Made by a program: the position numbers and the translations under genes. A stretch of 32,000 bases of DNA from Candidatus Omnitrophota bacterium. GTDB lineage: Bacteria; Omnitrophota; Gorgyraeia; Zapsychrales; JANLHA01. Location of the stretch: contig OY759724.1 in the NCBI GenBank assembly GCA_963662715.1, positions 1,290,001 to 1,322,000 of the forward strand. The letters run 5' to 3'. Shown here one piece after another: positions 2,492-22,697 of this stretch (the first letter of the stretch is position 1; each line of letters begins with the position of its first letter). The notes beneath the pieces are model-generated. The model searched no databases. It saw only the letters and a list, made by a program, of their open reading frames with translations, and was not told the origin of the DNA.

Positions 2492-3379
2492 TTAACCGCC
2501 CCCAAGCTCTGCCAACGGGTTCTCTTCGATAAACTGCAGAAAGATAGGTCCCGCAACAAGGATCCCCACAACAGGGAAAATAAAGAACAACAGCGGCACC
2601 AAAAGCTTCATAGGTGCTTTCATGGCCATTTGTTCACCCCTGCGGAATCTCGCAAGACGCATATCTTCGGAGAGGAGATTTAAGGCTTCGGAAACAGATG
2701 TTCCCATCTTGTCTGCCTGCAACAGCGTTCTGGAGAAAGAAGAAACCTCCGAAAGGTCAAACTTTGACGCAAGGTCCTTCAGGGCATCTCTTCGAGTCTT
2801 TCCAACATTGATTTCCTGCAGCAAAATGTTAAGCTCATTAACCATAACCGAAGGGGTGGACTTTTCAACAACCCATTTGAGGGCCAACATAAAGTCCAAA
2901 CCAGCATTCACACAGAGCCCCAACAAGTCAATGGCGTTCGGAAGCTCTTTGACAATAATAGCCTTAACTTTTTTTATCTTTCCTTTTAGCCAGAATTCCG
3001 GCATCATATAACCGACAGAAAAACTCATAAACAGCCAAAAAAGTATCATATCCGGCTGAATCATCTGAAACGTCAACAACAACACCAAAACAATGCCGAC
3101 TTCTTTCATCAAGAAAAATTCTTCCGGAGTCATATTCACATGCCCCACAGACAAATCCTTGGAGATTCTTTTTCTTAAGCCTCCAACACAAAGAGGCTTA
3201 TTAATCATAGCCAAGCCCCTAATGAGAGATGTTGTGCTTTTTTTCTTTTTTGCCGGGGTGACCTCGTAGCCAAATGTTTTTAAAGTTGGTCGGCTTTCTA
3301 TGTCTACCGGAAAAATACCCATAATAAAACTGAAACCCGCCAAGAAACACATCGTTAATAAAAATGTCAACATTACCAT
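2492..3379 (-). CDS. tadC: Tad pilus inner-membrane platform protein TadC (T2SSF domain)
   Basis: 295 aa. T2SSF-type core: ELPNAIDLLGLCVNAGLDFMLALKWVVEKS...LQEINVGKTRRDALKDLA...SEALNLLSEDMRLARFRRGEQMAMKAPMKLLVPLLFFIFP. SD AAGGAAGG upstream of the ATG. It is the second of two adjacent T2SSF paralogs. Confidence 0.88.
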   Translation of the reverse strand: MVMLTFLLTMCFLAGFSFIMGIFPVDIESRPTLKTFGYEVTPAKKKKSTTSLIRGLAMINKPLCVGGLRKRISKDLSVGHVNMTPEEFFLMKEVGIVLVLLLTFQMIQPDMILFWLFMSFSVGYMMPEFWLKGKIKKVKAIIVKELPNAIDLLGLCVNAGLDFMLALKWVVEKSTPSVMVNELNILLQEINVGKTRRDALKDLASKFDLSEVSSFSRTLLQADKMGTSVSEALNLLSEDMRLARFRRGEQMAMKAPMKLLVPLLFFIFPVVGILVAGPIFLQFIEENPLAELGGG

Positions 3380-3415
3380 GATCGACCTTCCTTAATATAG
3401 TGGATTACCTTAACA

Positions 3416-4270
3416 TTAAAAATCTTTAAAGCTACTGATTTTGAAAATCATAACAGCGCCTACAATTTCCGAAATAACGGCATAAACAAGCATCCCCCTT
3501 CCGACCGGAGATTGAAACATATGGTCAAAAAACGTGGGATTCGTTCCATAAATGATCGTAAAAAACATAACAGGCAAAGCCGACATAACAACTCCCTGTA
3601 TTTTTCCCTGGATAGTCAATGTGTCTATCTGGGATTTGATCCTTTTCTGCTCCCGGATAACATTAACAATGCGCTGAAAAATACTCGGCAGGTTCCCGCC
3701 CGTTTCTCTTGCGAGCAGAATTGCTGTCGTCATCTGCTGAACGGCTGCTGATGGCTGGCGGTTATATAAATGGTTCAGGGCTTCATCCAAAGAAACCCCC
3801 ATATTATTTTCCCCCAAAACAATGGAAAACTCCTGATTTATAGGATCCGGCATTTCTTCCACAACGGCTTCCATGGCTTGCACCAAGCTTAAGCCTCCGC
3901 GAAAAGAGCTGGACATAATCATCAAGGCGTCTATAAGCTGATCATCAAATTTTTTCCGATTTTGATTTATAAGAAGGTTGTTGTAAACCCCTGGGAATAT
4001 TAAACCGAAAACAATACCAATCCCGATACCAAAAACCCTTAAGTCTTCGGGGAAAAAGATGTAAAAAATACCGGAAAAAAGGATAGGGGCAATAACATAA
4101 AAACGGGTAATCTTTTCCACTTTGGACCGTGGAAGAACCCTGTCCAATCTTGAAGAAAGCTTATGAGCTCTCTTTTGCCCTATTTCCACTGTTTTGTCAT
4201 ATAGCAACGGAATAACAAAATAGCCAAACAAAGCGGCTGAAATAAATATGCAGAAAAAAGATACGTACAT
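3416..4270 (-). CDS. tadB: Tad pilus inner-membrane platform protein TadB (T2SSF domain)
   Basis: 284 aa. LIDALMIMSSSFRGGLSLVQAMEAVVEEMPDPINQEFSIVLGENNMGVSLDEALNHL...ARETGGNLPSIFQRIVNVIREQKRIKSQIDTLTIQGKIQG is a typical TadB/T2SSF pattern. SD GAGGAGG. Confidence 0.88.
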   Translation of the reverse strand: MYVSFFCIFISAALFGYFVIPLLYDKTVEIGQKRAHKLSSRLDRVLPRSKVEKITRFYVIAPILFSGIFYIFFPEDLRVFGIGIGIVFGLIFPGVYNNLLINQNRKKFDDQLIDALMIMSSSFRGGLSLVQAMEAVVEEMPDPINQEFSIVLGENNMGVSLDEALNHLYNRQPSAAVQQMTTAILLARETGGNLPSIFQRIVNVIREQKRIKSQIDTLTIQGKIQGVVMSALPVMFFTIIYGTNPTFFDHMFQSPVGRGMLVYAVISEIVGAVMIFKISSFKDF

Positions 4271-4308
4271 GTCTTAAGCCTCCTCATAGAATTAAACGCA
4301 AACACTTC

Positions 4309-4734
4309 CTATAAAATCACATCCGCACAAAGATCGCCTTCCGCAGTGTCTTCGGAACAGCCTTCCAGGCAAGAGAGACAGTCGGTTATATATTCAGGCG
4401 TTCCTACCGGAACCGTACAATCACACCCATGATCACTATAACATTCCTTGGAAATCCATTTATTAATCAATGTACACGGCCTTGTCGGTCCTGTTGCCGC
4501 AGTACAATGAGCTGCGTCAAAAAAACATTCCAGCGTGCCCCCGGCATCTCCATCTGTCCCGTAAGGACGAGGATCGTATTGCCTGCCTGACCCAAAAACA
4601 TCGCCTGCTTTTTTCCAGCCCCCGGCATAGGCTCTTATGATATAATTTTGAAAGACAAAAATGGCTGTTATCAAAAAAACCATTAATGTCATATATTCCA
4701 TAATAGACTGGGCTTCTCTGTTTCTTTTTAACAT
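4309..4734 (-). CDS. Pilin-like protein with a class III signal peptide and a Cys-rich C-terminal domain (candidate minor pilin)
   Basis: 141 aa. N-terminus MLKRNREA|QSIMEYMTLMVFLITAIFVF. It shares the GRQYDPR motif with the pilin paralogs. By my count there are 10 Cys in the last ~75 aa. Confidence 0.75.
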   Translation of the reverse strand: MLKRNREAQSIMEYMTLMVFLITAIFVFQNYIIRAYAGGWKKAGDVFGSGRQYDPRPYGTDGDAGGTLECFFDAAHCTAATGPTRPCTLINKWISKECYSDHGCDCTVPVGTPEYITDCLSCLEGCSEDTAEGDLCADVIL

Positions 4735-4769: not shown

Positions 4770-7700
4770 TTAGTTAGTTCCCGCAATAAACTGATCATCA
4801 CATTGATAAAACCTGATCCGGAAACTCTGCAGCCCGCTATATCCTCCTCCCCCGCCTCCTAAATAATACTGGGCACAGGAAGTGGTTACATATCCATATC
4901 TTAGAAGGCTTTCATGAATGAAATCCCAACAATCCTTATACTGGGCATCGCCTCTGGGATATCCCGCGCTGGCTGTGGGGGTCCGATTTATCATAAAGGC
5001 GTTTTTCCAGCCCCATTCCCAAGACGTTCCGGCAATATTCGGATCAATCATAATGCTACAGGTCAATTCCAGGTCCGTGGGATCATTATCCTGGCCTTCC
5101 GGATGATAAAACATGGGCTTCCACAGCCGTGTGCCGTTTGCGAAATTAATATTTCCGCTAACAGAATCTTCGTCATAACGAATGACCATGGCTTTGACCC
5201 GGCCGGTCCTCTCTTGCAGTTCATAACAACGCTTTGTTCCCCAATCCTTGGTCCAGGTTTTTATCCACGGCCATCTGTCTGTTCCGCAAGCACCATTACA
5301 CCGCCCCGGAGATCTGACTGTCACTTTAACAACATGCCAGTCTCCTCTGATTGTGTTGTAGACATCCTTGGGTTCGTCCTGCCATGCGTAAATAGCAAAA
5401 GACGTTGTCGCCGGAGGATAAAGGTTGTCCCAGCTTTTACAGGCATCTATCACCGCCTGGGCCGGACCGGTAAGAAAATTGTTTATCTGGAGCAACCCAT
5501 TAAATAACTGGTTGGTTATCTCCTCCGCTTCGTCCCTGCGACCGGTAAGCAGATTAACCCGTTTCTCTATCTTGGCCGCCTGATTTTGAGCAGCCAAAAC
5601 ACTCCAGTCTAGCAAATCTTTCCATCCTCCGGGATCTGTGTCTCCGCAGGACCCTACAGAGTTTTCCAAAGCGGTGCCGACAGCATCAAAAAATGGGGTT
5701 GCGCCATAACCGCAGGTTTCCTCACAGGTTCCCAAGACGCCCACTCCGGCCCAGGTACAGGAGCAGTTCAAAAGCTCTGATTCAATCGTAGCGCTGGCGC
5801 AGTTAATGGTGGTGGACTGGTCGCGGCACTGATTTGTCAAAGTGCCCGTAGGGTTTGCTATACAAAAATCGTACATATTATTTATTTTTGTTAAAACATT
5901 GTCATCCGGCGGAACAGCCGGAGGATCCGGAGTATCATCCGTAGCGGTGAAAGCCGGGATACCGTAACCTCCCGGCAACACGGCGCATTCAATATTACAG
6001 GTATAAATATTCGTGGTTCCGTAGCATTCGTCCAACTCTAAAAGATCATTCGGATCCCCTGCCACAGTATAAGTCATCTCATCAAAACCCGGGACAAGAG
6101 ACCGGGGCAACACCTGGCAGGAAGATATCGAGGCCGCGATATCATTATCGCAATCCCACTTGCAGGCATCAAATTTTTCCGCATTCCCCTGGGCTTGTGC
6201 CCCGGTAGCGCCTGAAATAATAGCGTTTCCGCTGGCATCCTGGGCCAAATCAGCAAGGTTCCAATCTAGACAAGCGATAATATCTTCCAAATCTCCTCTT
6301 GTGCCGTTTCCGTTAAAATCAAAAACAGCCTGTTCTTCCTGGCTGACCCCCGGACATTCAAGGCCATCATAACCAGCCTGAAAACCGACATACGCTGGAT
6401 CCGCATATTTATTAGCTGCCCCCTGCGGAGGCGGGACACACCAGACAGCCGGGGTGGCGGCAGAACTGTCAATTTTACAGCCTGATCCGACATATGGAAC
6501 CGTAGGCTCCATCCATTCCACAATAGGCTGATAAAAAGAATTCAAATCATCCCGCCAGACATACCAGTATCCTCCGTCCTCGTTCCCCGTACAGCTGGAA
6601 CCGCAAGCCGAAGGATCGCCCCCCGGACACGGGGCTTCAAACCAATCCGCAAAGCCGCCGCTTCCTGTGGCGGCCAGACCAATTTCGTACCAATCTATAA
6701 AATTATCTTCAATCTCATCCGGATCCAGTTTGTATTGTTCCATGGCCCAACTATAAAATTCCGTAAGTCCGTAAATAAAGTCATCCAGCTTGTCATCCGG
6801 CCAGTTTGACCAGACATATTGCCAGTTTGTGCCTGCCGCAGGCGCAACCGGAGGATAAGGATCCAGGGCTCCGCCCTCCCCGCAATTACAATCCACGCCA
6901 TACACAGTTCCATCTTCCGGATCAACTTCAGTACAATTGACGCCGTTCCCGGCTTTGACACATTCTGCCATATAGGGCCATTCATCCGGAGGATCACAGA
7001 ACAGGTCCGCTCCTCTTTTCCAGCCGCCCTCATCCTGCGCACATTCCGAATCTTCCGCTAAAATATCATCAATATTAGGGACCAAATCCAACAATTGCGG
7101 CGGATCCGTAAAATCAGACCCCATATTTGTGGCATCAACACACCACCCACCGCTATACGGAGCATCATCCGGAGTGTTAGGAAGAATCAAGGCCGGGGAA
7201 ATCTCGGCAGGGAAGGTCAGCCCCGTACACTCAACGGGAACATCTCCCGTAGGCGGAAGTCCGGTAGGGTCACAGAGATGACATTCCAGGTCGTCCCTGT
7301 TCGGTAAGGCCAAGGCCCCGTAAGTTAATTCCTGTAAATTCATGCCCCAATCGTCAAGCTTATAAAAAAACGGAAAGATCCCAAGCCGGTCATCCGTGGA
7401 ATAAAAACCCGTGGCGTCTTCCATATAAAAATCATATTCTGCTTGAGGCCGGAGCAATTGCGAATGATCCGCAACCGTCCCGCTGCCGTCAATAAGCAGA
7501 TGCCATTGAGGCCTTGCCGAATTCACTTCATACTGATGATGAGTATCATCCTCTCCAATCCATTCCCTGAAGGAAATAAATTCCTGTCCGGTTGAATTGT
7601 TGGTGGAGTCTTCATAAAAGCCTTGATATACATAAGGATAAGAAACAGCCAAATTAGGCGCCACCGGCGGCAACGGGTCATGAAAAGGCGACCTGTTATA

Positions 7701-8729
7701 ACACGTGTTCGGATCGCCTCCGGTAAAGCCTTCATCCGCGATACAGCTTCCTGTCGCGCAACATGCCGGGCGAAACGCCGAGTCCACGCAGCAGGGATCA
7801 CACATCGAAGGGAAACGGTTGTCCGTCGTAGGGCTGATAGGGCAACAGGGATGGGTCGGATTCCCTTCGCAATCTAAAGGATCAAACAATCCCCAGTTGT
7901 CTGTATCATAAGAATTGTCGCCTCCGTATAAAAAATCTCCCAAAGAATCCAAGAATTGTTCAACAACATTGGAATTGTTGTCCTGAATCCCCTGCAATCG
8001 GCGCGTATAATAATAAGCAAATCTGGAGACATAATCTGGAGCCGTTGTTCTGTCAAGAGGATCTGACAAATCACCAAAAGCCGTATCCGTATCCATATCA
8101 AATAAATCGGGAATTTGCGCCGGATCAGTAACCGCAGACATTAAAGCCGTCTGTATCCCGTATTCTATAGCCATTTCTTTCGTGGTCAGGGAATCGGACA
8201 TCATTTTGTTCCACATCGATGTGATCCCCGGCTGAGTAACCGTGACATCTATAACCGCCGCAGCAATAACCAAAACCGCGGCCACAATCGCAGCCGCTAA
8301 TCCCCACCCCTCTATCTGCCCCGTTGCCGCGCAAACCACGACAAGGACAATAACAATAATGGCGGCAATGAGTTTGACAAGAAAGCCGGTCCAGGCACAA
8401 ATTTTCGTTTTGCCTCCCAAAGAAGTCATATACAGCATTTGTCCGTAACTGGCAATAAAGGAAGCCATTTTGCTTGCGGCTGTATTAGCCCCGATGATCG
8501 TTAAGGTCTTTCCCGAAGAAATTTTCCCGATGTTAATGGTGGCGGCATATAAAATTAAGCCAATGGCCGCTGCCAGAATAAGAATTAAACCGACTTGTCC
8601 TGCAATATGTCTGGGAGGGTTTCTTTTGGAAGAAAAAGAATCTTCCGGTCCCATACGATCATCGCCATAAAAATACCGGCTCTGCTGCTTGCGAATTTTC
8701 TTAAACCATTTATGGACACGTTGAAACAA
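4770..8729 (-). CDS. Giant (1319 aa) TadG-like protein: TadG/Tad_N-type N-terminal anchor, two more TM helices, and a ~1150-aa Cys/Asp/Pro/Gly/Trp-rich exported domain
   Basis: Single uninterrupted ORF. TTG start at 8729 is preceded by AAGGGGA at SD distance. N-terminus HIAGQVGLILILAAAIGLILYAATINIG resembles the TadG-type N-terminal helix. I count about 51 Cys, including CC pairs (HPCCPIS, DPCCVD, PACCATGSC). I recognise no other domain. Confidence 0.8.
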   Translation of the reverse strand: MFQRVHKWFKKIRKQQSRYFYGDDRMGPEDSFSSKRNPPRHIAGQVGLILILAAAIGLILYAATINIGKISSGKTLTIIGANTAASKMASFIASYGQMLYMTSLGGKTKICAWTGFLVKLIAAIIVIVLVVVCAATGQIEGWGLAAAIVAAVLVIAAAVIDVTVTQPGITSMWNKMMSDSLTTKEMAIEYGIQTALMSAVTDPAQIPDLFDMDTDTAFGDLSDPLDRTTAPDYVSRFAYYYTRRLQGIQDNNSNVVEQFLDSLGDFLYGGDNSYDTDNWGLFDPLDCEGNPTHPCCPISPTTDNRFPSMCDPCCVDSAFRPACCATGSCIADEGFTGGDPNTCYNRSPFHDPLPPVAPNLAVSYPYVYQGFYEDSTNNSTGQEFISFREWIGEDDTHHQYEVNSARPQWHLLIDGSGTVADHSQLLRPQAEYDFYMEDATGFYSTDDRLGIFPFFYKLDDWGMNLQELTYGALALPNRDDLECHLCDPTGLPPTGDVPVECTGLTFPAEISPALILPNTPDDAPYSGGWCVDATNMGSDFTDPPQLLDLVPNIDDILAEDSECAQDEGGWKRGADLFCDPPDEWPYMAECVKAGNGVNCTEVDPEDGTVYGVDCNCGEGGALDPYPPVAPAAGTNWQYVWSNWPDDKLDDFIYGLTEFYSWAMEQYKLDPDEIEDNFIDWYEIGLAATGSGGFADWFEAPCPGGDPSACGSSCTGNEDGGYWYVWRDDLNSFYQPIVEWMEPTVPYVGSGCKIDSSAATPAVWCVPPPQGAANKYADPAYVGFQAGYDGLECPGVSQEEQAVFDFNGNGTRGDLEDIIACLDWNLADLAQDASGNAIISGATGAQAQGNAEKFDACKWDCDNDIAASISSCQVLPRSLVPGFDEMTYTVAGDPNDLLELDECYGTTNIYTCNIECAVLPGGYGIPAFTATDDTPDPPAVPPDDNVLTKINNMYDFCIANPTGTLTNQCRDQSTTINCASATIESELLNCSCTWAGVGVLGTCEETCGYGATPFFDAVGTALENSVGSCGDTDPGGWKDLLDWSVLAAQNQAAKIEKRVNLLTGRRDEAEEITNQLFNGLLQINNFLTGPAQAVIDACKSWDNLYPPATTSFAIYAWQDEPKDVYNTIRGDWHVVKVTVRSPGRCNGACGTDRWPWIKTWTKDWGTKRCYELQERTGRVKAMVIRYDEDSVSGNINFANGTRLWKPMFYHPEGQDNDPTDLELTCSIMIDPNIAGTSWEWGWKNAFMINRTPTASAGYPRGDAQYKDCWDFIHESLLRYGYVTTSCAQYYLGGGGGGYSGLQSFRIRFYQCDDQFIAGTN

Positions 8730-8759
8730 GGATTTTCCCCTTTTTTAATGTTATATATT

Positions 8760-9065
8760 TTAAGGGATTTCTTCTCCAAAAATATTACTGTTAACCGTGG
8801 CATTAATCTGGGTGGCTGAGTAAAACATCGGTCTCGTTTGCTCTAACGGCCCGCCGGAATCATTCGTACTTATAGGAGACTCCAGAATAGCTTCGTGCCG
8901 GACAAATCTTTTTATCAAATCTGAACCTGTCCACGCAAAAACCTGAATCATGCCCACGATCAACAAAACGACACCTATCATTCCGAACATAAATTCCAGG
9001 GTAACCTGTCCTGGCCATTTGATTTTAACCAAATTTTTTTGAAAAAATTTTCTATTTTTCATCAT
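8760..9065 (-). CDS. TadE-like pseudopilin
   Basis: 101 aa. MMKNRKFFQKNLVKIKWPG|QVTLEFMFGMIGVVLLIVGM has the TadE-type G|QxxxEF N-terminus. Confidence 0.75.
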   Translation of the reverse strand: MMKNRKFFQKNLVKIKWPGQVTLEFMFGMIGVVLLIVGMIQVFAWTGSDLIKRFVRHEAILESPISTNDSGGPLEQTRPMFYSATQINATVNSNIFGEEIP

Positions 9066-9092
9066 TATAACTGATTATTCCGTAGCTATAAA

Positions 9093-10832
9093 TTATGGGG
9101 CAAAACGGCGTATCCAGCGCCGCCCTCTTAAATCACTTATACGGCTCCGCACATACAATATATAGCTGTCCCGGTCAAAACACGTAAGCTGAATAATCCC
9201 CGGATCAAAACATGTCGTTCCTGTGCTGGGACGGGAACAGGCTTCAACAGGGTTTTCTATCCCGTAAAGACCATTGCTCCTGGCCCAGGCCGTTGTTCCC
9301 CAGTCCCGGGGTGTAACATCGTTTGAACAAAACCTGCCTGAATCTCTCGTAAGCTGCAGCTGCCGCTCAACCACATCCAGCTGGTCGTGTCTCTCTGTGC
9401 TGCGGGAAAACTGTCCGGGAATGGCCGCCGGCATGATATTTTCCCCTTCTTCAACCCTTAAATAAGCCCCCTGCCCGGTTGTCTGGCCTGGGTCAGAGGA
9501 CGTAATCGTATATATCTGGGTGTCATCGGAAAATCCTGCCGACTGCTCAAGACAGCGCCAATTAGAACATATTCCCGCCCCATTATTGCCGGTTGCTGTG
9601 CTTCCGATCGTACAATTCCCGCTCGGTGCCGCACCGCAGGCCCCTCCGACAGTCCCGGCAAATCTCCATTCCCCGGGCATGCGAGCGTCTTCCATAAACG
9701 AACTGTTCAGATCTCCTTCCTGGCTATCCACAACGTAAAGCGTTCGAATAACTCCCGAACTCAAAACACTATAATTTAATATTGTTTCTTCAAAATAATC
9801 CCCGTCACAATCAATTTGAGAGTTCTCCGGAGAGTCCTCCCCGCTGGGATCAACAAAAATCCCCTGGACCCCGCCCCACGGCAACCCGGGTGTGGCCGTC
9901 CCGTTTCTTACGCCGGCAATCAAAAACCATTGCCAAAAAAAACCGTCCCGGTCTCCCGCCGGAACATCTGAAACTCCGTCAAAATCCAAATCAAAACGGA
10001 TATCCTGGGGAAGATTGGAGCAATCCTTAACGCAGACGCTCCCAAAACAGCATTTTTTGCTTTTCGGATAATTCCCGACAATGGTAAATATAACCGTACA
10101 CCCGGCATTGCTGGAAACGATATCATAATCCCCGGTTCCCGGGCCACCGGTGGCCAAAACACATTCATTCATATAGCCCATCTCATAATCCCCGTTGTTA
10201 TACCCGACAAAAACGCACGTATCATAAGATACGCAGTCGCTCCACCAGCACATGCCATACGGCGGATCATTGGGCGGGGCATTGTTATTGAAAAATGCCG
10301 GACCTGATTCGTTGCAGGGCGGAATCCAGGCCGGCCTTCCGCCGCTTGCCGTTGCCAGCGTAATAGTCTTAAAATCAGAAACAAGTAAAGGAATTCTTTG
10401 GCCGTTTATAAATAAATCTGACAAAGGAAGGTCATAGCGGTCGCCATAGTCTGTCGGACGGAATAAATTTTTGCTATGTGTGGCCGAAGCTGAAGCAGAA
10501 ACAGGAAACCGGTCTTTTGTCCCGAACTTGCTCCCGGCGGTTATGCTTATCCTGTCCTCCAGAATAACAACCGAAGCTCCTGTCCTGGCGTTAGCCCCGT
10601 CTTTGCCGGTTGAAAAATTAACATATTCTCCTTCCGTGGTGCGATAAGACTCGCTCAAAGCCAGACGTAAAGCACGCAATTGCAGGTTGTTCTGCATACT
10701 GGCTTGCACGCCGGCTTTAATGATAGAACCAATGATAAAAATTAATAAAGCTCCGAAAATAGCCAATTCCGTGCCTGATTGAGCTATCACAGACCGTTGT
10801 CGAGGCGTATTTTTTCTCTTTAGAAACATCAT
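9093..10832 (-). CDS. Large (579 aa) Cys-rich TadE/TadF-like pseudopilin
   Basis: N-terminus MMFLKRKNTPRQRSVIA|QSGTELAIFGALLIFIIGS (TadE-like). The remainder is Gly/Asp/Cys-rich (about 19 Cys by my count) with no domain I recognise. Confidence 0.75.
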   Translation of the reverse strand: MMFLKRKNTPRQRSVIAQSGTELAIFGALLIFIIGSIIKAGVQASMQNNLQLRALRLALSESYRTTEGEYVNFSTGKDGANARTGASVVILEDRISITAGSKFGTKDRFPVSASASATHSKNLFRPTDYGDRYDLPLSDLFINGQRIPLLVSDFKTITLATASGGRPAWIPPCNESGPAFFNNNAPPNDPPYGMCWWSDCVSYDTCVFVGYNNGDYEMGYMNECVLATGGPGTGDYDIVSSNAGCTVIFTIVGNYPKSKKCCFGSVCVKDCSNLPQDIRFDLDFDGVSDVPAGDRDGFFWQWFLIAGVRNGTATPGLPWGGVQGIFVDPSGEDSPENSQIDCDGDYFEETILNYSVLSSGVIRTLYVVDSQEGDLNSSFMEDARMPGEWRFAGTVGGACGAAPSGNCTIGSTATGNNGAGICSNWRCLEQSAGFSDDTQIYTITSSDPGQTTGQGAYLRVEEGENIMPAAIPGQFSRSTERHDQLDVVERQLQLTRDSGRFCSNDVTPRDWGTTAWARSNGLYGIENPVEACSRPSTGTTCFDPGIIQLTCFDRDSYILYVRSRISDLRGRRWIRRFAP

Positions 10833-10847
10833 GATAAAAGTATGAAG

Positions 10848-11156: not shown

Positions 11157-11187
11157 TCTTGCGCTCCCTCAAAATACTGGTTAATGA

Positions 11188-13576: not shown

Positions 13577-13582
13577 GAATGA

Positions 13583-15352: not shown

Positions 15353-15354
15353 AT

Positions 15355-15696: not shown

Positions 15697-15939
15697 ATGC
15701 TAAAATGTCCTTATTGTTACGAACTCTTAAAATCCGGGGATGAATTGCGCTGCCCAACTTGCTCCCAGTACATCATTGATGAAATTCTCAGCGTAGACTT
15801 TCCAAGCCTTGATAAAAAAAACTGTATTTTTTGTGGAAAAAAAATATTGCTAGAAGCGAAAATCTGTAGGTACTGTAAAAAATGGTTGGATGAGATTGAC
15901 CGTGCCGCAAACGATATAGATCCGGAGGATCTGGTTTAA
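15697..15939 (+). CDS. Small double zinc-ribbon protein (80 aa)
   Basis: Four CxxC pairs (CPYC, CPTC, CIFC, CRYC). AAGGA lies 7 nt upstream of the ATG. This is the only credible plus-strand gene in the window. Confidence 0.55.
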   Translation: MLKCPYCYELLKSGDELRCPTCSQYIIDEILSVDFPSLDKKNCIFCGKKILLEAKICRYCKKWLDEIDRAANDIDPEDLV

Positions 15940-16038
15940 GACTATCAAAGCTGCTTCTTACAATCTGCGGTTAGATAAAAAAACGCCTACAGAATAAAAC
16001 CTGTTCAACACTTCCGGACAGTTTGAACTTCTTCCTTT

Positions 16039-16386
16039 TTACGCCTGCTCCAGGAAAAGCTGGTCCCCCTTTGCTGTGCGAGAAGAATCGATCACTCCGA
16101 CAGGAAGTTCTATGGCCTTTTGTGCGGTAATATAGTAAGGGCTCATACGGAATGGCTTAATATTCCGAACTACTCCGACAACAACGTTTCGCTTGTTTAC
16201 AAAAATAACATCTATAGAAAAACGCATAAAAAACATGTGGATCGACCGGCACTGTGTAATAATCAATGCTTCCTGAGATTCTATAGAAGTCCGGTTCAAT
16301 AACCCAACAAGTCTTGATACAGCCGTATCGGCAAGATCTGCCTTTTCAGCAATAATAGTATTTTTGGTCTGATTGATTATCTTCAC
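16039..16386 (-). CDS. DUF192 (COG1430) family protein
   Basis: 115 aa. CRSIHMFFMRFSIDVIFVNKRNVVVGV...AIELPVG matches the DUF192 core pattern (IHTFFMRFPLDVvFld). The start is 4 nt after the tadZ-tadA stop. Confidence 0.75.
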   Translation of the reverse strand: MKIINQTKNTIIAEKADLADTAVSRLVGLLNRTSIESQEALIITQCRSIHMFFMRFSIDVIFVNKRNVVVGVVRNIKPFRMSPYYITAQKAIELPVGVIDSSRTAKGDQLFLEQA

Positions 16387-16390
16387 GCGA

Positions 16391-18547
16391 TTAGGAAGGT
16401 TTTGTAAAGATCGTCTTATCTATGGAGAGGCCCATAGTTATAAAATCGTTAAAACTTTGCGGAGTATATCCCGTAGCTTCGTATTCCCCAACAATGATTC
16501 CGTTTTCATCGATGCCTTTTTGGTTAAAAATAAAAATATCCCGCAAATCAAGAGCGTGTTCAATCGTCAAACCAACAACTTCTGTGATCCCGGTAATTTT
16601 CCTTGAACCGTCAGAAAATCTGGCAACATGAACAATAAGATCAATGGCTGAAGAGATCATTTCATTAATGGCCCGAACCGGCAATTCAATTCCGCTCAAC
16701 AAGATCATTGAGCTCATGCGGACGAGAACGTCACGCGTGGAGTTGGCATGCAATGTTGTCATAGATCCGTCATGCCCCGTATTCATGGCCTGTAACATAT
16801 CAAGAACTTCCGGCCCGCGACATTCACCAATGATAATACGATCAGGCCGCATACGAAGAGAGTTGATAAAAAGATCCCGGATGGAAACGGCTCCTTTGCC
16901 TTCAATGTTGGTCGGTCGTGACTCCAGCCGTCCCCAATGGCTTTTTTTCAGCCTTAATTCAGCGGCGTCTTCTATGGTAATAATTCTTTCATTGTCCGGA
17001 ATGAACTGAGAAATAACATTAAGCAAGGTCGTTTTTCCAGAACCGGTTCCTCCGGAAACTATAATATTTTTTCTGGCAAGAACGCTGGCCTGCAAAAACT
17101 CCCTCATGGTCTTGGTAAAACTGCGGTATCTTTGCTCCAGGTCTTCCACGTCCAAGCGTTCAGCGCCAAATTTACGAATCGTAATCATCGGCCCGTTTAA
17201 TGAAAGAGGAGGGATGATAGCATTGAAACGGGAACCGTCGGGAAGACGGGCGTCCACCATCGGGGTGGATTCGTCAATTCGGCGTCCGAGCGGGGCGATA
17301 ATACGGTCAATAATGGCTCTCATTTGTTGTTCGGAAACGAATTTCTTATTTGTATAAATAAGCTTCCCGTGTTTTTCAATATACAGTTCATCCTTATTGT
17401 TAGCCATGATGTCGGAAACATCCGGATCCGCTAAAAATTCTTCAAGGGCCCCGAGCCCCAAAGCCTCGTCAACAATTTCTTTTACTAATCGCCGTCTTTC
17501 CTCGTGGGAAGAGATCATCGCGCCTTTTTCTTCTATCAATAAATTGCTGACAATCTTTCTTGCGTCGTCCTTCAGTTCCGCGGCTTTAATGGGGTCGCTT
17601 AGGTTGTCCGGGCTCAAATCTTCAATATTAAGACGGCCGACCAGTTTTTCATGTATTCTTCTTTTAAGAGAAATAATCTCGTCTTCTTCCTTTTCAAAAA
17701 CACCGCCCGGAAGATATTGCGGCGTGATGCCAAATTTTTCCCAAAACTTTCCTGGCTTATCTAATCCTTCTGTTGTTCTTTCCCGCTCAATTTCAAAAGC
17801 TTGAACAAAAAGATCCTCTTTCTTCAAATCATTGACCATGCGGTTAAACGCATCTGTAACCTGACTTTTGGGAGAATCGATAACGACCGGGACGCCCCGA
17901 TTCAAGGCCATACCCACGGCACGGCCGTCAGAAGGGATACGTGAAAATATCTCACAGGCTAACGCTGACCGGACTTCCTGCCAGGCAACGCCGCCGCGAC
18001 TCTCCGACCGGTTAAGAACCAGCTTAACCATTTTAAGAGGAAAATGAAGGCTTTGCAGCATTTCTAAACACCATTTCACCTGATAAACAGCCAAAACATC
18101 CGGAGTGGCCACTAAAAAGATCACGTTAGAGTGATCCAGAACGGTTAACATTGTTTCGCTAAAAGATTTTCCGACATCAACAATAACAAAGTCGTAGACT
18201 TGCCCGACTTTTCTAAAAAACGGCTTGATGTTATCAGAGGAGACATGACCAACTTGTTTTGTGTGAAGCACTCCCGGAAGAAAATCCAACCCGCTTGAAT
18301 GCGAGCTTACATATTTTTTTATAACACCGGCTTCTTCGCTTTTTTCAATTTCAGCCAAAAGATCCACCAAGCCATGCCTGGGGGCAAGATTCAACATCCG
18401 GGCCATGTCGTGCGCCGCCTGAAAATCCATATCAAGCAACAGAACTCTTTTTCCAGATAAAGCAAGAACCGTGGCCATATTAACAGAAACAAAGGTTTTC
18501 CCAACACCACCTTTATTGCTAAAGACTGTAATGATTTTTGAACTCAT
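16391..18547 (-). CDS. tadA: Fused TadZ/CpaE-like (MinD/ParA-type) ATPase domain and TadA/CpaF secretion ATPase (718 aa)
   Basis: aa 1-~255: VFSNKGGVGKTFVSVNMATVLALSGKRVLLLDMDFQ...YDFVIVDVG...VLNRSE (deviant Walker A, CpaE/TadZ-type). aa ~300-718: CpaF-type domain with LGLGALEEFLADPDVSDIMAN, ARLPDGSRFNAIIPPLS, Walker A VSGGTGSGKTTLLN, IITIEDAAEL, RPDRIIIGECRG and GHDGSMTTLHAN. Confidence 0.92.
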   Translation of the reverse strand: MSSKIITVFSNKGGVGKTFVSVNMATVLALSGKRVLLLDMDFQAAHDMARMLNLAPRHGLVDLLAEIEKSEEAGVIKKYVSSHSSGLDFLPGVLHTKQVGHVSSDNIKPFFRKVGQVYDFVIVDVGKSFSETMLTVLDHSNVIFLVATPDVLAVYQVKWCLEMLQSLHFPLKMVKLVLNRSESRGGVAWQEVRSALACEIFSRIPSDGRAVGMALNRGVPVVIDSPKSQVTDAFNRMVNDLKKEDLFVQAFEIERERTTEGLDKPGKFWEKFGITPQYLPGGVFEKEEDEIISLKRRIHEKLVGRLNIEDLSPDNLSDPIKAAELKDDARKIVSNLLIEEKGAMISSHEERRRLVKEIVDEALGLGALEEFLADPDVSDIMANNKDELYIEKHGKLIYTNKKFVSEQQMRAIIDRIIAPLGRRIDESTPMVDARLPDGSRFNAIIPPLSLNGPMITIRKFGAERLDVEDLEQRYRSFTKTMREFLQASVLARKNIIVSGGTGSGKTTLLNVISQFIPDNERIITIEDAAELRLKKSHWGRLESRPTNIEGKGAVSIRDLFINSLRMRPDRIIIGECRGPEVLDMLQAMNTGHDGSMTTLHANSTRDVLVRMSSMILLSGIELPVRAINEMISSAIDLIVHVARFSDGSRKITGITEVVGLTIEHALDLRDIFIFNQKGIDENGIIVGEYEATGYTPQSFNDFITMGLSIDKTIFTKPS

Positions 18548-18604
18548 AGAATACCTATTAATAATATTAATATGAAGAGTTAATCCGTTAAACTAATAGT
18601 CTTT

Positions 18605-18633
18605 AGTATACAAATGAAACTTGTTTTTGGCAA
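18605..18633 (-). promoter_or_regulatory. Candidate sigma70-type promoter for the tadZ-tadA/DUF192 unit
   Basis: The minus strand reads TTGCCA (18633-18628), 17 nt, TATACT (18610-18605), in the 190-bp spacer after the secretin gene. Confidence 0.4.
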
Positions 18634-18739
18634 GAATTCTTTGGCAGGAAATCTATTTTAGCCTCTTAGGGCACAATTATCTTTTCATTCAACGCTTAAA
18701 CGGCTGTCAGTTCAATAATATACAATCAAAAACAAGGCG

Positions 18740-20776
18740 CTATTCTTCTGTTCCTTCCAACGAAGCCTCTTGACTATATACAATAGGTATCGTCACAACT
18801 AACTCTTCGAGATCAAGATCCGGAGGGAAAGAAGAAAATGGCGCTAAAATCCGGGCGGTATTAATGGCATCTTTATCAAAGGAATCAAAACCCGATGAAG
18901 ATTGAATTTTAGCATCATTGAGTGTGCCGTCATTTAGAATAGTCAGAGAAAGGACAACGGTCCCTTCCCACCCTTGTTCTTTGGCTTCCATTGGAAAAGA
19001 AATGGCCCGGGAAATCTTTTTCTGAATAACCTGAACATATTCAGAAATAATTTGAGACGTCCCCTCATCAACCACCGCCTCTTCCGCCTCGGCTGGCTCT
19101 GGAGCAGGTTCGGCAGTCTCCGCAACTTCCATCTCTTCCGGCATTTCCATCGGTTCTTCCATTTCCATGGCTTCTTCCTCGGAAACAGCCTCCCCGTATT
19201 CCTCTTCTCCTGCCGGCATTTCTTCTTCAACCGCAGGTTCTGTTTCTTCCGGTTGCTCTTCTTCCATAACAGGAGGAATGGTCTCCATCTCTTGGTTGGT
19301 TAATTCTTCCGGAAAATCCTGAACATCAAATTCTTCTTCTATTTTCTCCAAATCCTCTTCAAGGATGGCATCGATTTCATCTGAAATGGAATCAAGCTCT
19401 TCCGAAGACAATTCTTCCGTAGGATATTCTTTTTCCTCTTCAGCAGGAGGTAAAGCTTCTTTTTGTTCCTCGGCAAGATTTTCCTGATAAACTTCTTCCA
19501 TAATAGAGTACTTCTTTCGCACCTCTTCACTATCATAATCCATGTGTTTCTGGGTCACAATGCGCGGCGTTAAACTGATAACCACTTCCTGCTCGGTGTC
19601 TGTCGGCCAGTTCTTGTCGCGGAACAAAAATCCGATGATCGGAATTCGGCGCAAAAAAGGAACCCCAACTACTGTTTCGGCTTTGTTCTGTTTAATTAAT
19701 CCGGCCAGAACAATGGTTTGCCCGTCATTCAAAATCAACTTGGTTGATGCTGTTCTTGTCGTAAAAGCCACATCCTCTCCCACGGCATTTGAAGCATCAA
19801 TATCACGAATAGTCGTTGTCAATTCAAGAGCTATTTTAGATCCTTTTATATCAGGAGTAACGTCGATATCAATACCGTAAGAAGTATAGGAAATATTCTC
19901 TTGGACGCTTGACCCCCCTGACGCCGTTGTCGTGGTTCTTACGGGAATTTCACCTCCGACCAAAAGATTGGCCGACTCTCCGTTAGCTACAACAATACTT
20001 GGCTTTGACAGAATTCTTGCCTCCCCTTCCGCGATCAAGGCTGAGACAATCGTCTGTATGGCCGTAACTCTTTCAAAATCACCAATTTTAAACAAATCTT
20101 TTACGCTTCCGTCGAAAGTCGGCTGGGTTTCTTGATAGCTTAAAATTATCCCATCGGCACCCGTGTTCCAGTTAAAACCCAATGCTTTCTGTAACGTCGT
20201 ATTCAATTCGGAGACCTGAACATCAATCTGAATCAAGTCATTATCTTCATCAATATAGTTAAGAATATGCGATTTTATATCGGGAGAGGAGATTATGTCC
20301 TTAAATTTATCCGCCTTCTGCTCGAAGACCGATCCCGTTAACACAACTTTTCTTTCAAATATATTTTTATGCAAGTTGACAGTCGTTATTCCCACAGAGT
20401 CTAAAAGCGTCTGAATGCGCTTCATGATCAGATCCAGGTCCGCAGCTAAAACCCGGATAAAAACCTGTCTCTTTCCGTACTCATCCCAAATAAAAAGCTG
20501 GGTCTCTCCAACCCTTTGACCAACAATGAGCAACTCATCGATATCGGCATTCGCAATTTCAACAATACCAGGATTACTAATAGCAATTCTGGTCAATTGA
20601 TAAACTTTTAGCGAAATCAAATCCCCCTTATACAGGTAAACATCCGTATCTTCCGCAGAGTCAAAAACATCTTGGACCTGAGCGGAAACCGGTGTAAACA
20701 TGAACTGCGAAAAGACCAAACATAAAATTAAAATCCTGGTAAAAATAAATTGTTTATTGTTTATTAGTTTGTACAT
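18740..20776 (-). CDS. cpaC: CpaC/RcpA-type secretin fused to an acidic Glu/Pro-rich linker and a C-terminal TonB-type domain (678 aa)
   Basis: Signal peptide (ILILCLVFSQFMFTPVSAQ). Pilus N-terminal (BON-like) domain (RIAISNPGIVEIANADIDELLIVGQRVGETQLFIW). Secretin core (ILSKPSIVVANGESANLLVGGEIPV...LILNDGQTIVLAGLI...VPFLRRIPIIGFLFR). A ~165-aa E/P-rich low-complexity segment follows, then GWEGTVVLSLTILNDGTLNDAKIQSSSGFDSFDKDAINTARILAPF...LVVTIPIVY, which is the TonB C-terminal domain pattern. SD AAGGGAG. Confidence 0.9.
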   Translation of the reverse strand: MYKLINNKQFIFTRILILCLVFSQFMFTPVSAQVQDVFDSAEDTDVYLYKGDLISLKVYQLTRIAISNPGIVEIANADIDELLIVGQRVGETQLFIWDEYGKRQVFIRVLAADLDLIMKRIQTLLDSVGITTVNLHKNIFERKVVLTGSVFEQKADKFKDIISSPDIKSHILNYIDEDNDLIQIDVQVSELNTTLQKALGFNWNTGADGIILSYQETQPTFDGSVKDLFKIGDFERVTAIQTIVSALIAEGEARILSKPSIVVANGESANLLVGGEIPVRTTTTASGGSSVQENISYTSYGIDIDVTPDIKGSKIALELTTTIRDIDASNAVGEDVAFTTRTASTKLILNDGQTIVLAGLIKQNKAETVVGVPFLRRIPIIGFLFRDKNWPTDTEQEVVISLTPRIVTQKHMDYDSEEVRKKYSIMEEVYQENLAEEQKEALPPAEEEKEYPTEELSSEELDSISDEIDAILEEDLEKIEEEFDVQDFPEELTNQEMETIPPVMEEEQPEETEPAVEEEMPAGEEEYGEAVSEEEAMEMEEPMEMPEEMEVAETAEPAPEPAEAEEAVVDEGTSQIISEYVQVIQKKISRAISFPMEAKEQGWEGTVVLSLTILNDGTLNDAKIQSSSGFDSFDKDAINTARILAPFSSFPPDLDLEELVVTIPIVYSQEASLEGTEE

Positions 20777-20869
20777 ACAATCACTCCCTTGCCATCAGAA
20801 TAATTTATCCGAAAAACCTCTACGAAGACCAAAAAATCTTTCAGACCCCTTATAAGAAAACCCGTCTTA

Positions 20870-21673
20870 TTAGAGTGATTTGCCTCCCTGAAAGATTTGA
20901 ATAAAAGGCTTAACTTCCTCAGCTCTACCCGTAGAAACAGGCTGAATAACAGCCCGCTCCTTCGGAATAATTAATTCTGTACCTTGTTTTTCAAAAACGT
21001 AATCCGCCAAAGCGCTCCACGATGCCGCTTGAATAATTTCGGTTTCAGTTTCGGCTGGAGCGCGAAGAATAAGCTGCATTCTTCCGTGCTTTTCAATAAA
21101 GGACATCAAGCTCGCCTCTTCTGGTGTTAAGGCAAACGTAATATTCAAGGCTCTGGCGCTTTGTTGTTGTTCATACCCGCCCGGTGCCTGCAAATTGGTC
21201 CCGACAGCCAGTATTTGCACATTCTGAAAGACCATTGAAGAGACTTTTTGATCCGAACCGGAAACCGGATCCGGAATATTCATATGAGCGATAACATCAA
21301 TATAATCCCCCGGGTTCACCAAACCGCCGACCGCAGACAAAGAATCAATACGGACAGTATAGGCTCTTTTCCCTGCCGGAGTACGCAAGGCCAAAGAGGA
21401 CTTGGGAACCGCCGGCAATTCTGCGGGTTTCTGCTCCTGCACCTTAGTCGCCGTGGCTGCCTGCATGCTTGCGAGTTTTTGCATTTCTTTACGTAAAGAA
21501 TCAATTTCTCGCATCATGGGTTTGACTCTTTTATTTTCAAACTCCTGAGATATCTTGGCTGTTTCCTGATCAACTCTCGTTTGAACATAATGCCCGGTAC
21601 CAACGGAAGCCACAAGGCCAAGACCTATAGCCAAAATAATAATGGCTATTTGTTTTTTATTCTCTAAATTCAT
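20870..21673 (-). CDS. cpaB: CpaB/RcpC-family Flp pilus assembly protein
   Basis: 267 aa. N-terminal TM, a coiled-coil-like stretch, then KRAYTVRIDSLSAVGGLVNPGDYIDVIAH...VFQNVQILAVG (RcpC/CpaB C-terminal domain pattern). SD AGAGGAG. The start is 4 nt after the PPIase stop. Confidence 0.82.
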   Translation of the reverse strand: MNLENKKQIAIIILAIGLGLVASVGTGHYVQTRVDQETAKISQEFENKRVKPMMREIDSLRKEMQKLASMQAATATKVQEQKPAELPAVPKSSLALRTPAGKRAYTVRIDSLSAVGGLVNPGDYIDVIAHMNIPDPVSGSDQKVSSMVFQNVQILAVGTNLQAPGGYEQQQSARALNITFALTPEEASLMSFIEKHGRMQLILRAPAETETEIIQAASWSALADYVFEKQGTELIIPKERAVIQPVSTGRAEEVKPFIQIFQGGKSL

Positions 21674-21677
21674 TTCC

Positions 21678-22697
21678 CTACTCCTCTAATAAATTTAAGT
21701 TAACTTGTATATCCGTCTGCTGTCTCAGCTTATCTAAATGTTCTAAAATAGCCTGCTGTTGCTTAAGTAAAGTCAGTCCTCCAACAATATCTTCTTTTAT
21801 CTCCTCAAAAGCCTGCGCTTCTCCACCCTGTTTCTCTTCTAGCTTTATAATATAATAGCCTTCTGGCCCGGAAAAAACCCCGCTGACATTCCCGACGTCT
21901 AAGCTTTCGGCAACTTTCTGCATTGTCGGAAAATCAAATTTTGCTTTCAGCCCCAAATCTCCTTTTTGCCAAACAGAATTACTCTTCGATTTCTCTTTTA
22001 CTTTTTCAGCAAAATCAGCTCCCTGATAAAGCTCAACAAGAATCTGCTTGGCTTCCTCTTCCGTGTCAACGACAATCTCTCTAACGCGCCACTGGGCCTC
22101 CTCGGTAAAATCCTCTTTATTGGCCTCATAATATTCCTTGGCTTCTTCCTCTGTGACATCAATGTCTTTCGTCAACTTATTCGCCACTTCTCTCACTAAA
22201 AGAGTTTTTTTGAATTCCTCAACGGCTTTGACAATATCTTCATTCCCGGCCAGTCCGGTTTTAATGGCATCCTGAACAATTAGCTCTTGCCGAATCAATT
22301 CCTCTAATATCAACTTATTTTGATCTATATTTGTGGGATCATATTCAGGGACAACCTCTTTTAAAGCGGCCAACCTCTCTTTAAATTCTTCTACTGTTAT
22401 CGTCCAGCTGCCCACTTTTGCCAAAACATTTTCTGGTATTTTGGCTGCCGGGGCTGGCTCAGAGGCTTTAGGGGCTTCCGGTTTGGGGGTCGCCTTTTTT
22501 TCTTCTGTTTTTTTAGGCATAACAACGGCTTGAGCCGCAGCTGTTGGTTTTTGCATCGCGGCAGAGGAAGGAATCGGTTTTACTTTTTGATTTGATGAAT
22601 TATTTGTTTGTGAAGAAGAAAGCTTTTCACAACCAAAAGCAGATACAAATAAAAAAAACCCGACAACTATTGTCAATTTTTGTTTATTGAGCAACAT
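21678..22697 (-). CDS. Parvulin-type peptidyl-prolyl isomerase (PrsA/SurA-like), probable lipoprotein
   Basis: 339 aa. Signal with FVSAFGC. An Ala/Pro/Lys-rich linker, a SurA-like helical region, and a C-terminal parvulin-like segment (GDLGLKAKFDFPTMQKVAESLDVGNVSGVFSGPEGYYIIKLEEK). SD AAGGAGGAAAT. Confidence 0.78.
   Translation of the reverse strand: MLLNKQKLTIVVGFFLFVSAFGCEKLSSSQTNNSSNQKVKPIPSSAAMQKPTAAAQAVVMPKKTEEKKATPKPEAPKASEPAPAAKIPENVLAKVGSWTITVEEFKERLAALKEVVPEYDPTNIDQNKLILEELIRQELIVQDAIKTGLAGNEDIVKAVEEFKKTLLVREVANKLTKDIDVTEEEAKEYYEANKEDFTEEAQWRVREIVVDTEEEAKQILVELYQGADFAEKVKEKSKSNSVWQKGDLGLKAKFDFPTMQKVAESLDVGNVSGVFSGPEGYYIIKLEEKQGGEAQAFEEIKEDIVGGLTLLKQQQAILEHLDKLRQQTDIQVNLNLLEE

Follow-up and report, generated by a model that had tools for sequence, protein, structure and literature searches.

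Members of the phylum Omnitrophota are abundant, uncultured and ultra-small, and are thought to be predators or parasites. Seymour 2023 (PMC10066038) reports that Velamenicoccus archaeovorus LiM (accession no. CP019384.1) encodes a complete Tad complex at position 12,382-29,832, whose expression was seen in co-culture with Methanosaeta. In the same study, TadBC/RcpA were found in 74 of 116 species of Velamenicoccia, and the TadB/C proteins of Omnitrophota group with those of Bdellovibrionales. The locus analyzed here is a Tad/Flp-type pilus locus extending from position 22697 down to 2492 (minus strand) of a 32,000-nucleotide stretch of DNA from a Candidatus Omnitrophota bacterium (assembly GCA_963662715.1, contig OY759724.1, positions 1,290,001 to 1,322,000). 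This whole 32-kb stretch is referred to as the window, and all positions, unless another locus is named, are counted from its first nucleotide as position 1.

A secretion-system locus with more than 10 subunits, which generally precedes the giant genes of Omnitrophota and is found phylum-wide, is described in the accessible text of West-Roberts 2023 (bioRxiv 10.1101/2023.11.21.568195). The parts named there include homologues of gspD/E/F, rcpC, a Rotamase_2 peptidyl-prolyl isomerase (PPIase) and many genes encoding class III signal peptides, and the giant proteins are stated to carry N-terminal C39 domains. According to a 2026 preprint, 13 of 14 giants have secretion or pilus genes in their flanks, where TonB-domain genes are also mentioned without being linked to the secretin. 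In Bdellovibrio bacteriovorus, an “atypical TadZA fusion” and tad loci devoid of TadV have been described (Tesseur 2026, bioRxiv 10.64898/2026.07.08.737194); Flp1 is processed there by the type IVa PilD, and the Tad machine is needed for prolonged prey attachment and for invasion.

The results obtained for the window indicate that its locus is probably the phylum-typical Omnitrophota version of the Tad (type IVc) pilus machine, most likely serving as a pilus for contact with host or prey cells. The locus encodes a complete Tad core with prepilins, i.e. CpaB, a secretin, TadA, TadB, TadC and Flp-type prepilins. An initial annotation had assigned it to the Tad/Flp class, and this is borne out by domain assignments, by the amino acid (aa) sequence identity of its TadA part and by ten prepilin motifs. 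The same annotation took the locus for a probably undescribed variant of the machinery. This does not hold, since an Omnitrophota Tad or secretion locus is already reported by Seymour 2023 and West-Roberts 2023, and Bdellovibrio is known to have a TadZA fusion and no TadV in its tad loci. The locus is therefore an already described, poorly understood system with several undescribed details.

These details comprise features that are unmentioned in the accessible parts of Seymour 2023 and West-Roberts 2023: the TadZA fusion, the TonB_C secretin, DUF192, a family of helix-turn-helix (HTH) proteins and Cys-rich pilin-like proteins. The searchable text of West-Roberts 2023 contains none of the words TonB, MinD, DUF192 or cysteine. 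In the literature searched, no account was found of an Omnitrophota TadZA fusion, TonB_C secretins, DUF192 within the locus, the family of the HTH protein (p569), the foldase being a lipoprotein, a conserved arrangement of the pilin paralogues or pilin-like proteins rich in Cys, and nothing relevant was retrieved on RcpA-TonB fusions or on DUF192 in connection with pili.

For sampling of homologues, one genome per GTDB species was scanned with an alignment of the fused-ATPase proteins. All window proteins were then compared (blastp) with the open reading frames (ORFs) of loci fetched from related genomes, which are designated by L-numbers (L001, L082, etc.). The Omnitrophota sample consists of about 25 independently assembled loci with an ATPase identity of 50-93%, and about 35 Tad loci of other phyla, obtained in the same scan, served for comparison. 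The core genes identified in the window are:

21678-22697, minus strand: PrsA/SurA-like parvulin PPIase, a lipoprotein encoded at the head of the locus (Rotamase_2, 1.5e-18)
20870-21673, minus strand: CpaB/RcpC with an N-terminal transmembrane (TM) segment (RcpC, 2.7e-23; TIGR03177, 3.5e-24, above cut-off)
18740-20776, minus strand: secretin of RcpA/CpaC type, in which an acidic E/P-rich linker leads to a TonB_C domain at the C-terminus (Secretin, 1.5e-40; T2SS-T3SS_pil_N, 1.6e-9)
16391-18547, minus strand: TadZ-TadA (TadZA) fusion ATPase, a single 718-aa ORF (MinD/ParA, aa 3-241; T2SSE, aa 364-643)
3416-4270, minus strand: TadB platform protein, 284 aa (single T2SSF domain, 3.7e-18; 64% identity to L082)
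2492-3379, minus strand: TadC platform protein, 295 aa (single T2SSF domain, 1.2e-13; 69% identity to L082)

The N-terminal domain of TadZA (aa 3-241) matches AAA_31 (4.4e-18) and ParA (3.8e-16), contains the Walker A motif NKGGVGKT, and is devoid of the 120-180 aa N-terminal region seen in stand-alone TadZ proteins. The ATPase part matches T2SSE (6.7e-59) and the TadA family TIGR03819 (4.2e-94; 315 bits, below the 373-bit cut-off), and shares 45-56% identity with stand-alone TadA proteins from many phyla. More than 120 full-length TadZA homologues of about 720 aa were found (65-100% identity), and almost all of those with a named source are from Candidatus Omnitrophota. An ATPase homologue is present in all 25 Omnitrophota loci, as one full-length ORF in 22 of them; the remaining cases are a split ORF in L006 and genes cut by contig ends in L016 and L070 (a 131-aa fragment in the latter). 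One Omnitrophota contig (L061) contains two full-length TadZA paralogues in tandem (7148-9325 and 9335-11488), which share 58% and 52% identity, respectively, with the window protein.

The possibility that this fusion is common outside Omnitrophota was rejected: tblastn spans over residues 1-714 correspond to two adjacent ORFs in every case except L026. In this metagenome-assembled genome (MAG) of Vulcanimicrobiota, the sole exception to separate TadZ and TadA among the non-Omnitrophota loci, a single 701-aa TadZ-TadA ORF (9725-11830) shows 41% identity over residues 1-710. It is a fused ATPase outside both Omnitrophota and Bdellovibrio, and the existence of such a second fused lineage shows that TadZ-TadA fusions can recur.

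The TonB_C domain of the secretin (2.6e-14) occupies aa 592-667, after the long linker. A TonB_C match was found in all 24 Omnitrophota secretin ORFs sampled (including that of L070, which is counted here outside the 25 loci) and in none of the non-Omnitrophota secretins among the fetched loci. The secretin and CpaB were each identified in 23 of the 25 Omnitrophota loci, and the PPIase heads 20 of them. The latter protein gives a weak SurA_N match in Pfam and PrsA-type matches in NCBIfam; its signal peptide is followed by the only Cys of the protein, within an L-x-G-C lipobox kept in about 18 orthologues. Three statements of the initial annotation are upheld: that the operon is headed by a parvulin PPIase, that the secretin carries a TonB-type C-terminal module, and that TadZ and TadA form one polypeptide followed by a DUF192 gene.

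A24 prepilin peptidases were sought with a hidden Markov model (HMM) built from seven Pfam-verified TadV proteins encoded in Tad loci of other phyla. Neither the window nor any of about 28 Omnitrophota loci gave a match; the same HMM recovered 19 peptidases in non-Omnitrophota Tad loci. Nor did any window ORF give a TPR/TadD-like Pfam match. The reported lack of a prepilin peptidase and of a TadD/RcpB-type lipoprotein thus stands on both counts, yet the PPIase is itself a lipoprotein with a conserved lipobox, the sole lipoprotein recognized in the locus. By analogy with Bdellovibrio, an A24 peptidase may be supplied in trans.

Synteny analysis revealed an order shared by the approximately 25 Omnitrophota loci: PPIase, CpaB, TonB_C secretin, TadZA, DUF192, HTH protein, prepilins, large pilin-like proteins, TadB and TadC. 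The pilin-like proteins p579 and p101 and the large protein are present wherever the contig extends that far, and in two loci fetched via homologues of the large protein (L082 and L084) the order large protein, small Cys-containing pilin-like protein, TadB, TadC is kept. Several Omnitrophota loci also have gyrA, nitrilase and mdh genes as neighbours. Nearly all sampled Omnitrophota carry the locus, close to the replication origin and ahead of a giant gene. Because the order recurs in about 25 independent assemblies, the odd ORFs are neither assembly chimeras, which the initial annotation had named as a possible source of error, nor recent insertions.

The Tad loci of other phyla look different. 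In the approximately 35 loci examined, with the exception of the fusion in L026, TadZ is encoded by a separate gene, with the ATPase domain starting at residue 120-180; the TadB and TadC genes come straight after TadA; TonB_C is missing from the secretin; and TadV is often present. The architecture of the window locus does depart from canonical Tad systems, as had been proposed, and these departures are kept across the Omnitrophota assemblies.

Between the HTH gene and TadB lies a long series of genes for pilin-like proteins, which begins with a promoter, a leader and seven short prepilin genes:

13241-13612, minus strand: promoter and conserved 5′ leader (about 330 nt) of the pilin array, with a sigma70-like site and a terminator-like hairpin
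13082-13240, minus strand: pil1, Flp-type prepilin of 52 aa, mature 41 aa (Flp_Fap, 2.2e-5, below cut-off; G/QNIIEY)
12811-13017, minus strand: pil2, prepilin with the motif and a hydrophobic helix (Class_IIIsignal, 2.9e-7, above cut-off)
12398-12772, minus strand: pil3, prepilin with [GA]Q-x3(-4)-E-Y and a hydrophobic helix
12025-12345, minus strand: pil4, prepilin with the same motif and helix
11550-11975, minus strand: pil5, prepilin with the same motif and helix
11188-11520, minus strand: pil6, prepilin with the same motif and helix
10848-11156, minus strand: pil7, prepilin with the same motif and helix

Seven tandem pilin genes (10848-13288) had been recognized from the outset, and each of them indeed encodes the [GA]Q-x3(-4)-E-Y motif followed by a hydrophobic helix. 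Two corrections are needed: pil1 has 52 aa instead of the 68 aa first given, and the motif occurs in ten window proteins rather than seven, i.e. in pil1-pil7 and in the pilin-like proteins p579, p101 and p141C (see below). In all, the locus encodes 10-11 prepilin-type proteins, and the number of ORFs with a prepilin motif per Omnitrophota locus ranges from 4 to 13. Counterparts of pil1 appear as gene calls of 51-52 aa in L001, L082 and L084. As the best-conserved pilin (66% identity to L082), pil1 is the candidate major pilin. For pil2-pil7, orthologues that correspond one to one and keep the gene order are present in L001, L002, L003, L082 and L084.

The promoter of this array (13612-13583; TTGACA-18-TATACT with an extended TG) is the best sigma70-like site of the whole locus and is located immediately past the stop codon of p569. 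Within the leader, the terminator-like hairpin (13468-13435) shows compensatory changes among four sequences, and a second, sequence-conserved hairpin is placed at the 3′ end, ahead of the pil1 ribosome-binding site. The promoter, the hairpin and the 3′ block are kept in L001, L003 and L082. The leader matched no Rfam family; it may be an attenuator, a riboswitch-like leader or a small RNA. A 77-aa ORF (13313-13546) falls within it and is probably not a gene.

Four genes for longer or Cys-containing pilin-like proteins separate pil7 from TadB:

9093-10832, minus strand: p579, 579-aa pilin-like protein with 19 Cys (motif A/QSGTEL and TM segment)
8760-9065, minus strand: p101, 101-aa pilin-like protein (motif G/QVTLEF and TM segment)
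4770-8729, minus strand: p1319, protein of 1319 aa with a membrane anchor and 51 Cys (N-terminus a variant of the pilin-like type, three predicted TM segments)
4309-4734, minus strand: p141C, 141-aa pilin-like protein with 10 Cys (motif A/QSIMEY and TM segment)

The Cys counts agree with the earlier remark that three proteins, including one of 1319 aa, are very rich in this residue. The labels “TadE-like” and “TadG-like”, which had also been applied, find no support in Pfam: no TadE/Tad match was obtained, and what is present are eight longer proteins with prepilin-type N-termini and, besides these, p1319 with a variant (AGQVGLIL) without Glu5. No vWA or other known domain was detected in p579, p1319 or p141C, and no paralogy is detectable among them.

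Orthologues of p579 occur in 11 loci (28% identity to L082), and the protein has no Pfam or PDB relatives. The placement of p101 between p579 and the 1319-aa gene is conserved. For p1319, 25 homologues were found, every named one of them an Omnitrophota “hypothetical protein”; at least 21 alignment columns hold an invariant or nearly invariant Cys across 27-70% identity. An AlphaFold2 model of p1319 (aa 171-1319; pLDDT 70) gave no PDB match by fold (E ≤ 0.001), and none was obtained by sequence profile. Counterparts of p141C of 162 aa (L082) and 121 aa (L084) are located between the large gene and TadB.

Comparison with L082 separates the window proteins into (i) a conserved group with 61-74% identity (TadZA, TadC, TadB, DUF192, pil1, pil3 and pil4) and (ii) a fast-evolving group with 28-38% identity (p569, p579, p101, p1319, p141C and pil5). 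Conserved short pilins combined with fast-evolving exported proteins of conserved Cys pattern would fit a major subunit and surface-exposed contact proteins, respectively. The prepilin-type N-termini of the Cys-rich proteins and their rapid evolution likewise fit a surface-exposed, pilus-associated role. The initial annotation had taken the large disulfide-rich exported proteins for the likely functional payload, serving adhesion or cell-cell contact; this candidate reading is incomplete and does not take in the probable giant gene next to TadC (see below).

Tad-like pili can also serve transformation, as stated in the accessible text of PMC4322843, and the locus is compatible with DNA binding by its minor pilins. 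A DNA-uptake pilus, or another non-adhesive Tad-like pilus, of the kind acting in the Flp-dependent transformation of Micrococcus, is nevertheless very improbable here: neither ComEA/ComEC nor other competence genes were found in the window or in the flanks of the related loci, and the fast-evolving Cys-rich surface proteins, together with the linkage to giant genes described below, point to interaction between cells.

The gene preceding the pilin promoter encodes the HTH protein:

13643-15343, minus strand: p569, 566-aa cytoplasmic HTH protein (N-terminal Pax/transposase-like HTH; no Pfam match)

Translation of p569 more likely starts at the ATG at 15343, giving the 566 aa of database entry P0121, than at the start of the 569-aa version (13643-15352). 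In this protein, the HTH is joined through a disordered K/R-rich linker to an alpha/beta domain (about 450 aa); neither a signal peptide nor a TM segment was predicted. It is encoded at the equivalent position in 14 Omnitrophota loci. A word-index search returned 43 homologues, every named one from Omnitrophota, and with a profile 989 clusters (50% identity level) were retrieved, of which 667 scored below 1e-30; of the 989, the 150 matches that are listed cover the profile wholly or nearly so. No Pfam entry exists for this family. The initial annotation had described an orphan 569-aa HTH protein in the middle of the locus: the gene is real, but p569 is no orphan, being a regular member of the locus in 14 loci and of a 989-cluster family. 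In view of its position, p569 is proposed to act on the pilin promoter or leader.

A confident AlphaFold2 model of p569 based on 33 homologues (pLDDT 78, pTM 0.73) begins with a three-helix HTH that superposes on the HTHs of Pax paired domains and of transposases, these being the only high-probability fold matches. The domain of about 450 aa gave no PDB or BFVD fold match at E ≤ 0.001 (Foldseek), and the model no DDE/RNase H fold match in either database. A weak match of p569 to an IS481-type HTH (E 0.003), and two homologues with precomputed transposase-type HTH matches in Pfam, could suggest that p569 is an inserted transposase and that the locus is otherwise an ordinary canonical Tad locus or its odd ORFs are artefacts. 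Such an explanation is extremely improbable and is already refuted by the synteny data: the same fusions and gene order recur in the independent assemblies, and the canonical loci of other phyla differ in each of the respects listed above. An origin of p569 from an insertion sequence or transposon was likewise rejected, given its conserved position, the size of its family and the lack of a transposase-fold match.

Two small genes are located between TadZA and p569:

16039-16386, minus strand: DUF192 protein (PF02643, 2.5e-16)
15697-15939, plus strand: small double zinc-ribbon protein, 80-aa ORF between the DUF192 and HTH genes (DZR, 4.5e-5, below the Pfam cut-off)

DUF192 follows the ATPase gene in 22 of the 25 Omnitrophota loci; a sequence search of the PDB with this protein gave nothing useful. 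Genes for DUF192 proteins were also observed in or beside other Tad loci: L026 (14137-14493), L029 (13168-13575), L033 (14108-14494), L034 (6848-7195), L037 (3212-3577), L059 (6431-6775) and L063 (6494-6832). The groups concerned are Vulcanimicrobiota, Brocadiia, Syntrophomonadaceae, Planctomycetota and Sporosarcina, so the association of DUF192 with Tad is not specific to Omnitrophota, and DUF192 looks like a recurrent Tad accessory gene. The zinc-ribbon ORF, which had been overlooked in the initial annotation, has a promoter-like site of its own (15583-15611), and an 81-aa DZR gene occupies the equivalent place and orientation in L082/L083. The other genes of the window are read from the minus strand.

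Upstream of the locus, the right end of the window contains, in this order, the C-terminus of dnaA, dnaN, a gene of DUF721 size, gyrB, gyrA, tRNA-Glu, a nitrilase-family gene and a malate dehydrogenase gene, the last two named from their own translations and from Pfam matches of their L001 orthologues. The DnaA C-terminus (31850-32000, minus strand) and the AT-rich spacer (31700-31850) between it and dnaN place the locus, whose start is about 9 kb from dnaA, close to the origin; no part of the 32-kb window is enriched in consensus DnaA boxes. Two side observations concern the related loci. The gyrA ORF beside the Omnitrophota Tad locus L015 (1232-5254) encodes 1340 aa instead of about 817 aa and may hold an insertion or intein. 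L002, L003, L008, L009 and others are titled “uncultured Planctomycetales bacterium”, and protein P0041 is named “Bathyarchaeia archaeon”; these labels are probably taxonomic mislabels or reflect bin contamination.

At the opposite end of the window, the gene next to TadC, whose relation to giant genes the initial annotation could not show, runs off the sequence:

2-1708, minus strand: N-terminal 569 aa of the next gene downstream of TadC (TM segment, Peptidase_C39 2.5e-7, Gly-zipper)

This ORF, separated from TadC by 780 bp, shares 41% identity (336 aa aligned) with the N-terminal part of an ORF of 25,316 aa located at the equivalent position past TadC in L082, and its C39 domain is typical of giant proteins. 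An Omnitrophota giant gene therefore probably starts here. The linkage is not strict, since in L084 TadC and the giant-gene homologue are separated by five unrelated genes.

Proximity to a probable giant gene raises the possibility of a machine resembling a type II secretion system (T2SS), in which a short periplasmic pseudopilus would push or present cargo (the neighbouring giant protein, fragments of it released by C39 processing, or the Cys-rich proteins) through the secretin. The accessible text of West-Roberts 2023 treats the locus as a secretion system generally preceding giant genes, the 2026 preprint places secretion or pilus genes beside 13 of the 14 giants, and the homology of the window ORF past TadC to the start of the L082 giant points in the same direction; at least ten pilin-like proteins and a dedicated foldase also recall the complexity of T2SS pseudopilins. 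The parts, however, are of Tad type (two single-domain T2SSF proteins, a CpaF-like ATPase, CpaB, TadZ and Flp-size pilins with G/XXXXEY motifs): no GspC/L/M matches were obtained in the window, and the GspF and GspE models scored far below their cut-offs. In addition, the linkage is not strict, as L084 shows, and most giants carry SecA-like domains, which in Dockerin-type giants may aid their own secretion, according to the accessible text of West-Roberts 2023. The Tad machine of Bdellovibrio, the studied relative, acts in attachment and invasion. A machine of this secretory kind is accordingly regarded as rather unlikely.

A further reading would make the locus a distinct sub-type of type IV filament (TFF) system, in which a Tad core rebuilt with lineage-specific parts (a TonB_C-tethered secretin, a PrsA-like lipoprotein foldase, the HTH protein, more than ten prepilins and a disulfide-rich, pilin-like membrane protein of 1,300 aa) exports the neighbouring giant protein or displays it to host or prey cells. 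We consider this doubtful; if true, it would represent a mode of filament-assisted secretion or display new to all TFF systems.

For the preferred explanation, a Tad pilus contacting host or prey, the following mechanism can be proposed. TadZA, acting on the TadB/TadC platform, would polymerize pil1, and possibly pil3 and pil4, through the CpaB-secretin conduit, with the longer prepilins as minor pilins. The proteins p579, p141C and p1319 would form a tip or base complex touching the host or prey cell, and the PrsA-like lipoprotein foldase would help to fold exported proteins or the secretin. With TadD/RcpB absent, anchoring or coupling of the secretin might fall to TonB_C and its linker. The prepilins would be cleaved by a peptidase encoded elsewhere, probably a type IVa PilD as in Bdellovibrio, and p569 would regulate the strong promoter and leader just downstream of its gene.

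Several points weigh against this explanation. In this genome the filament, its expression and its adhesive function are predicted from gene content, and no gene of the 32-kb window encodes a prepilin peptidase. Homology to TadE/F/G is not demonstrable by Pfam. The conserved linkage to a giant gene fits a role in secretion equally well. As p1319 lacks Glu5 and has three predicted TM segments, it may never enter the filament. The roles given to p569 and to the Cys-rich proteins are pure inference, since these proteins have no relatives by fold or sequence.

The existence and conservation of the locus have already been published, so what is gained here is detail rather than a new kind of system. 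The locus is nevertheless among the most conserved candidate host-interaction machines of Omnitrophota, and it lies beside giant genes. A real list of parts (TadZA, the TonB_C secretin, the lipoprotein foldase, the HTH family and the conserved-Cys proteins) leads to testable hypotheses and provides a link to the experimentally tractable Tad system of Bdellovibrio.

When the known systems are compared with the window locus, T2SS (Gsp) machines share with it a secretin, a GspE-superfamily ATPase, a T2SSF platform, several pseudopilin-like proteins and possible cargo next door. The window locus differs from them in having no two-domain GspF, an ATPase of CpaF and not GspE type, and prepilins of Flp and not GspG type. 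The canonical Tad/Cpa systems (A. actinomycetemcomitans tad, C. crescentus cpa and P. aeruginosa rcp/tad), represented in this analysis by the approximately 35 loci of other phyla, have in common with the window CpaB, an RcpA-type secretin, TadZ and TadA domains, single-domain TadB and TadC, and Flp prepilins with the G/XXXXEY motif. In these systems TadZ has an additional 120-180 aa at its N-terminus and is encoded apart from TadA, TonB_C is missing from the secretin, and TadV was found in 19 loci, whereas in the window about 12 kb of pilin-like and unknown genes are placed between TadA and TadB, and TadD/RcpB is absent.

Large or modular minor pilins and TadG-type tip proteins combine a prepilin-like N-terminus with a large exported domain and are sited among the minor pilins. 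The proteins p579, p1319 and p141C resemble them in all these respects, and differ in their extreme Cys content and in having no vWA or PDB fold match, p1319 also in its extra TM segments and missing Glu5.

The closest counterparts are the Omnitrophota loci themselves. The locus of V. archaeovorus LiM and that of West-Roberts 2023 agree with the window locus in phylum, as judged by the names of homologues, in origin-proximal position and in size (about 17-20 kb), and the latter also in its gspD/E/F-like genes, rcpC, Rotamase_2 PPIase, class III signal peptide genes and linkage to giant genes; compared by position, size and component list as published in the accessible text, they show no known difference from it. 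The likeness to the Tad system of Bdellovibrio rests on the description in Tesseur 2026, a paper in which the words TonB, DUF192 and peptidyl are absent. Both systems possess a TadZ-TadA fusion composed of a ParA/MinD-like region, a linker and TadA, neither has TadV in its tad loci, and the context of a predatory lifestyle, probable in Omnitrophota, is common to both. They differ in organization: the tad genes of Bdellovibrio are dispersed over several loci, with tadC separate, whereas the Omnitrophota locus forms a single cluster.

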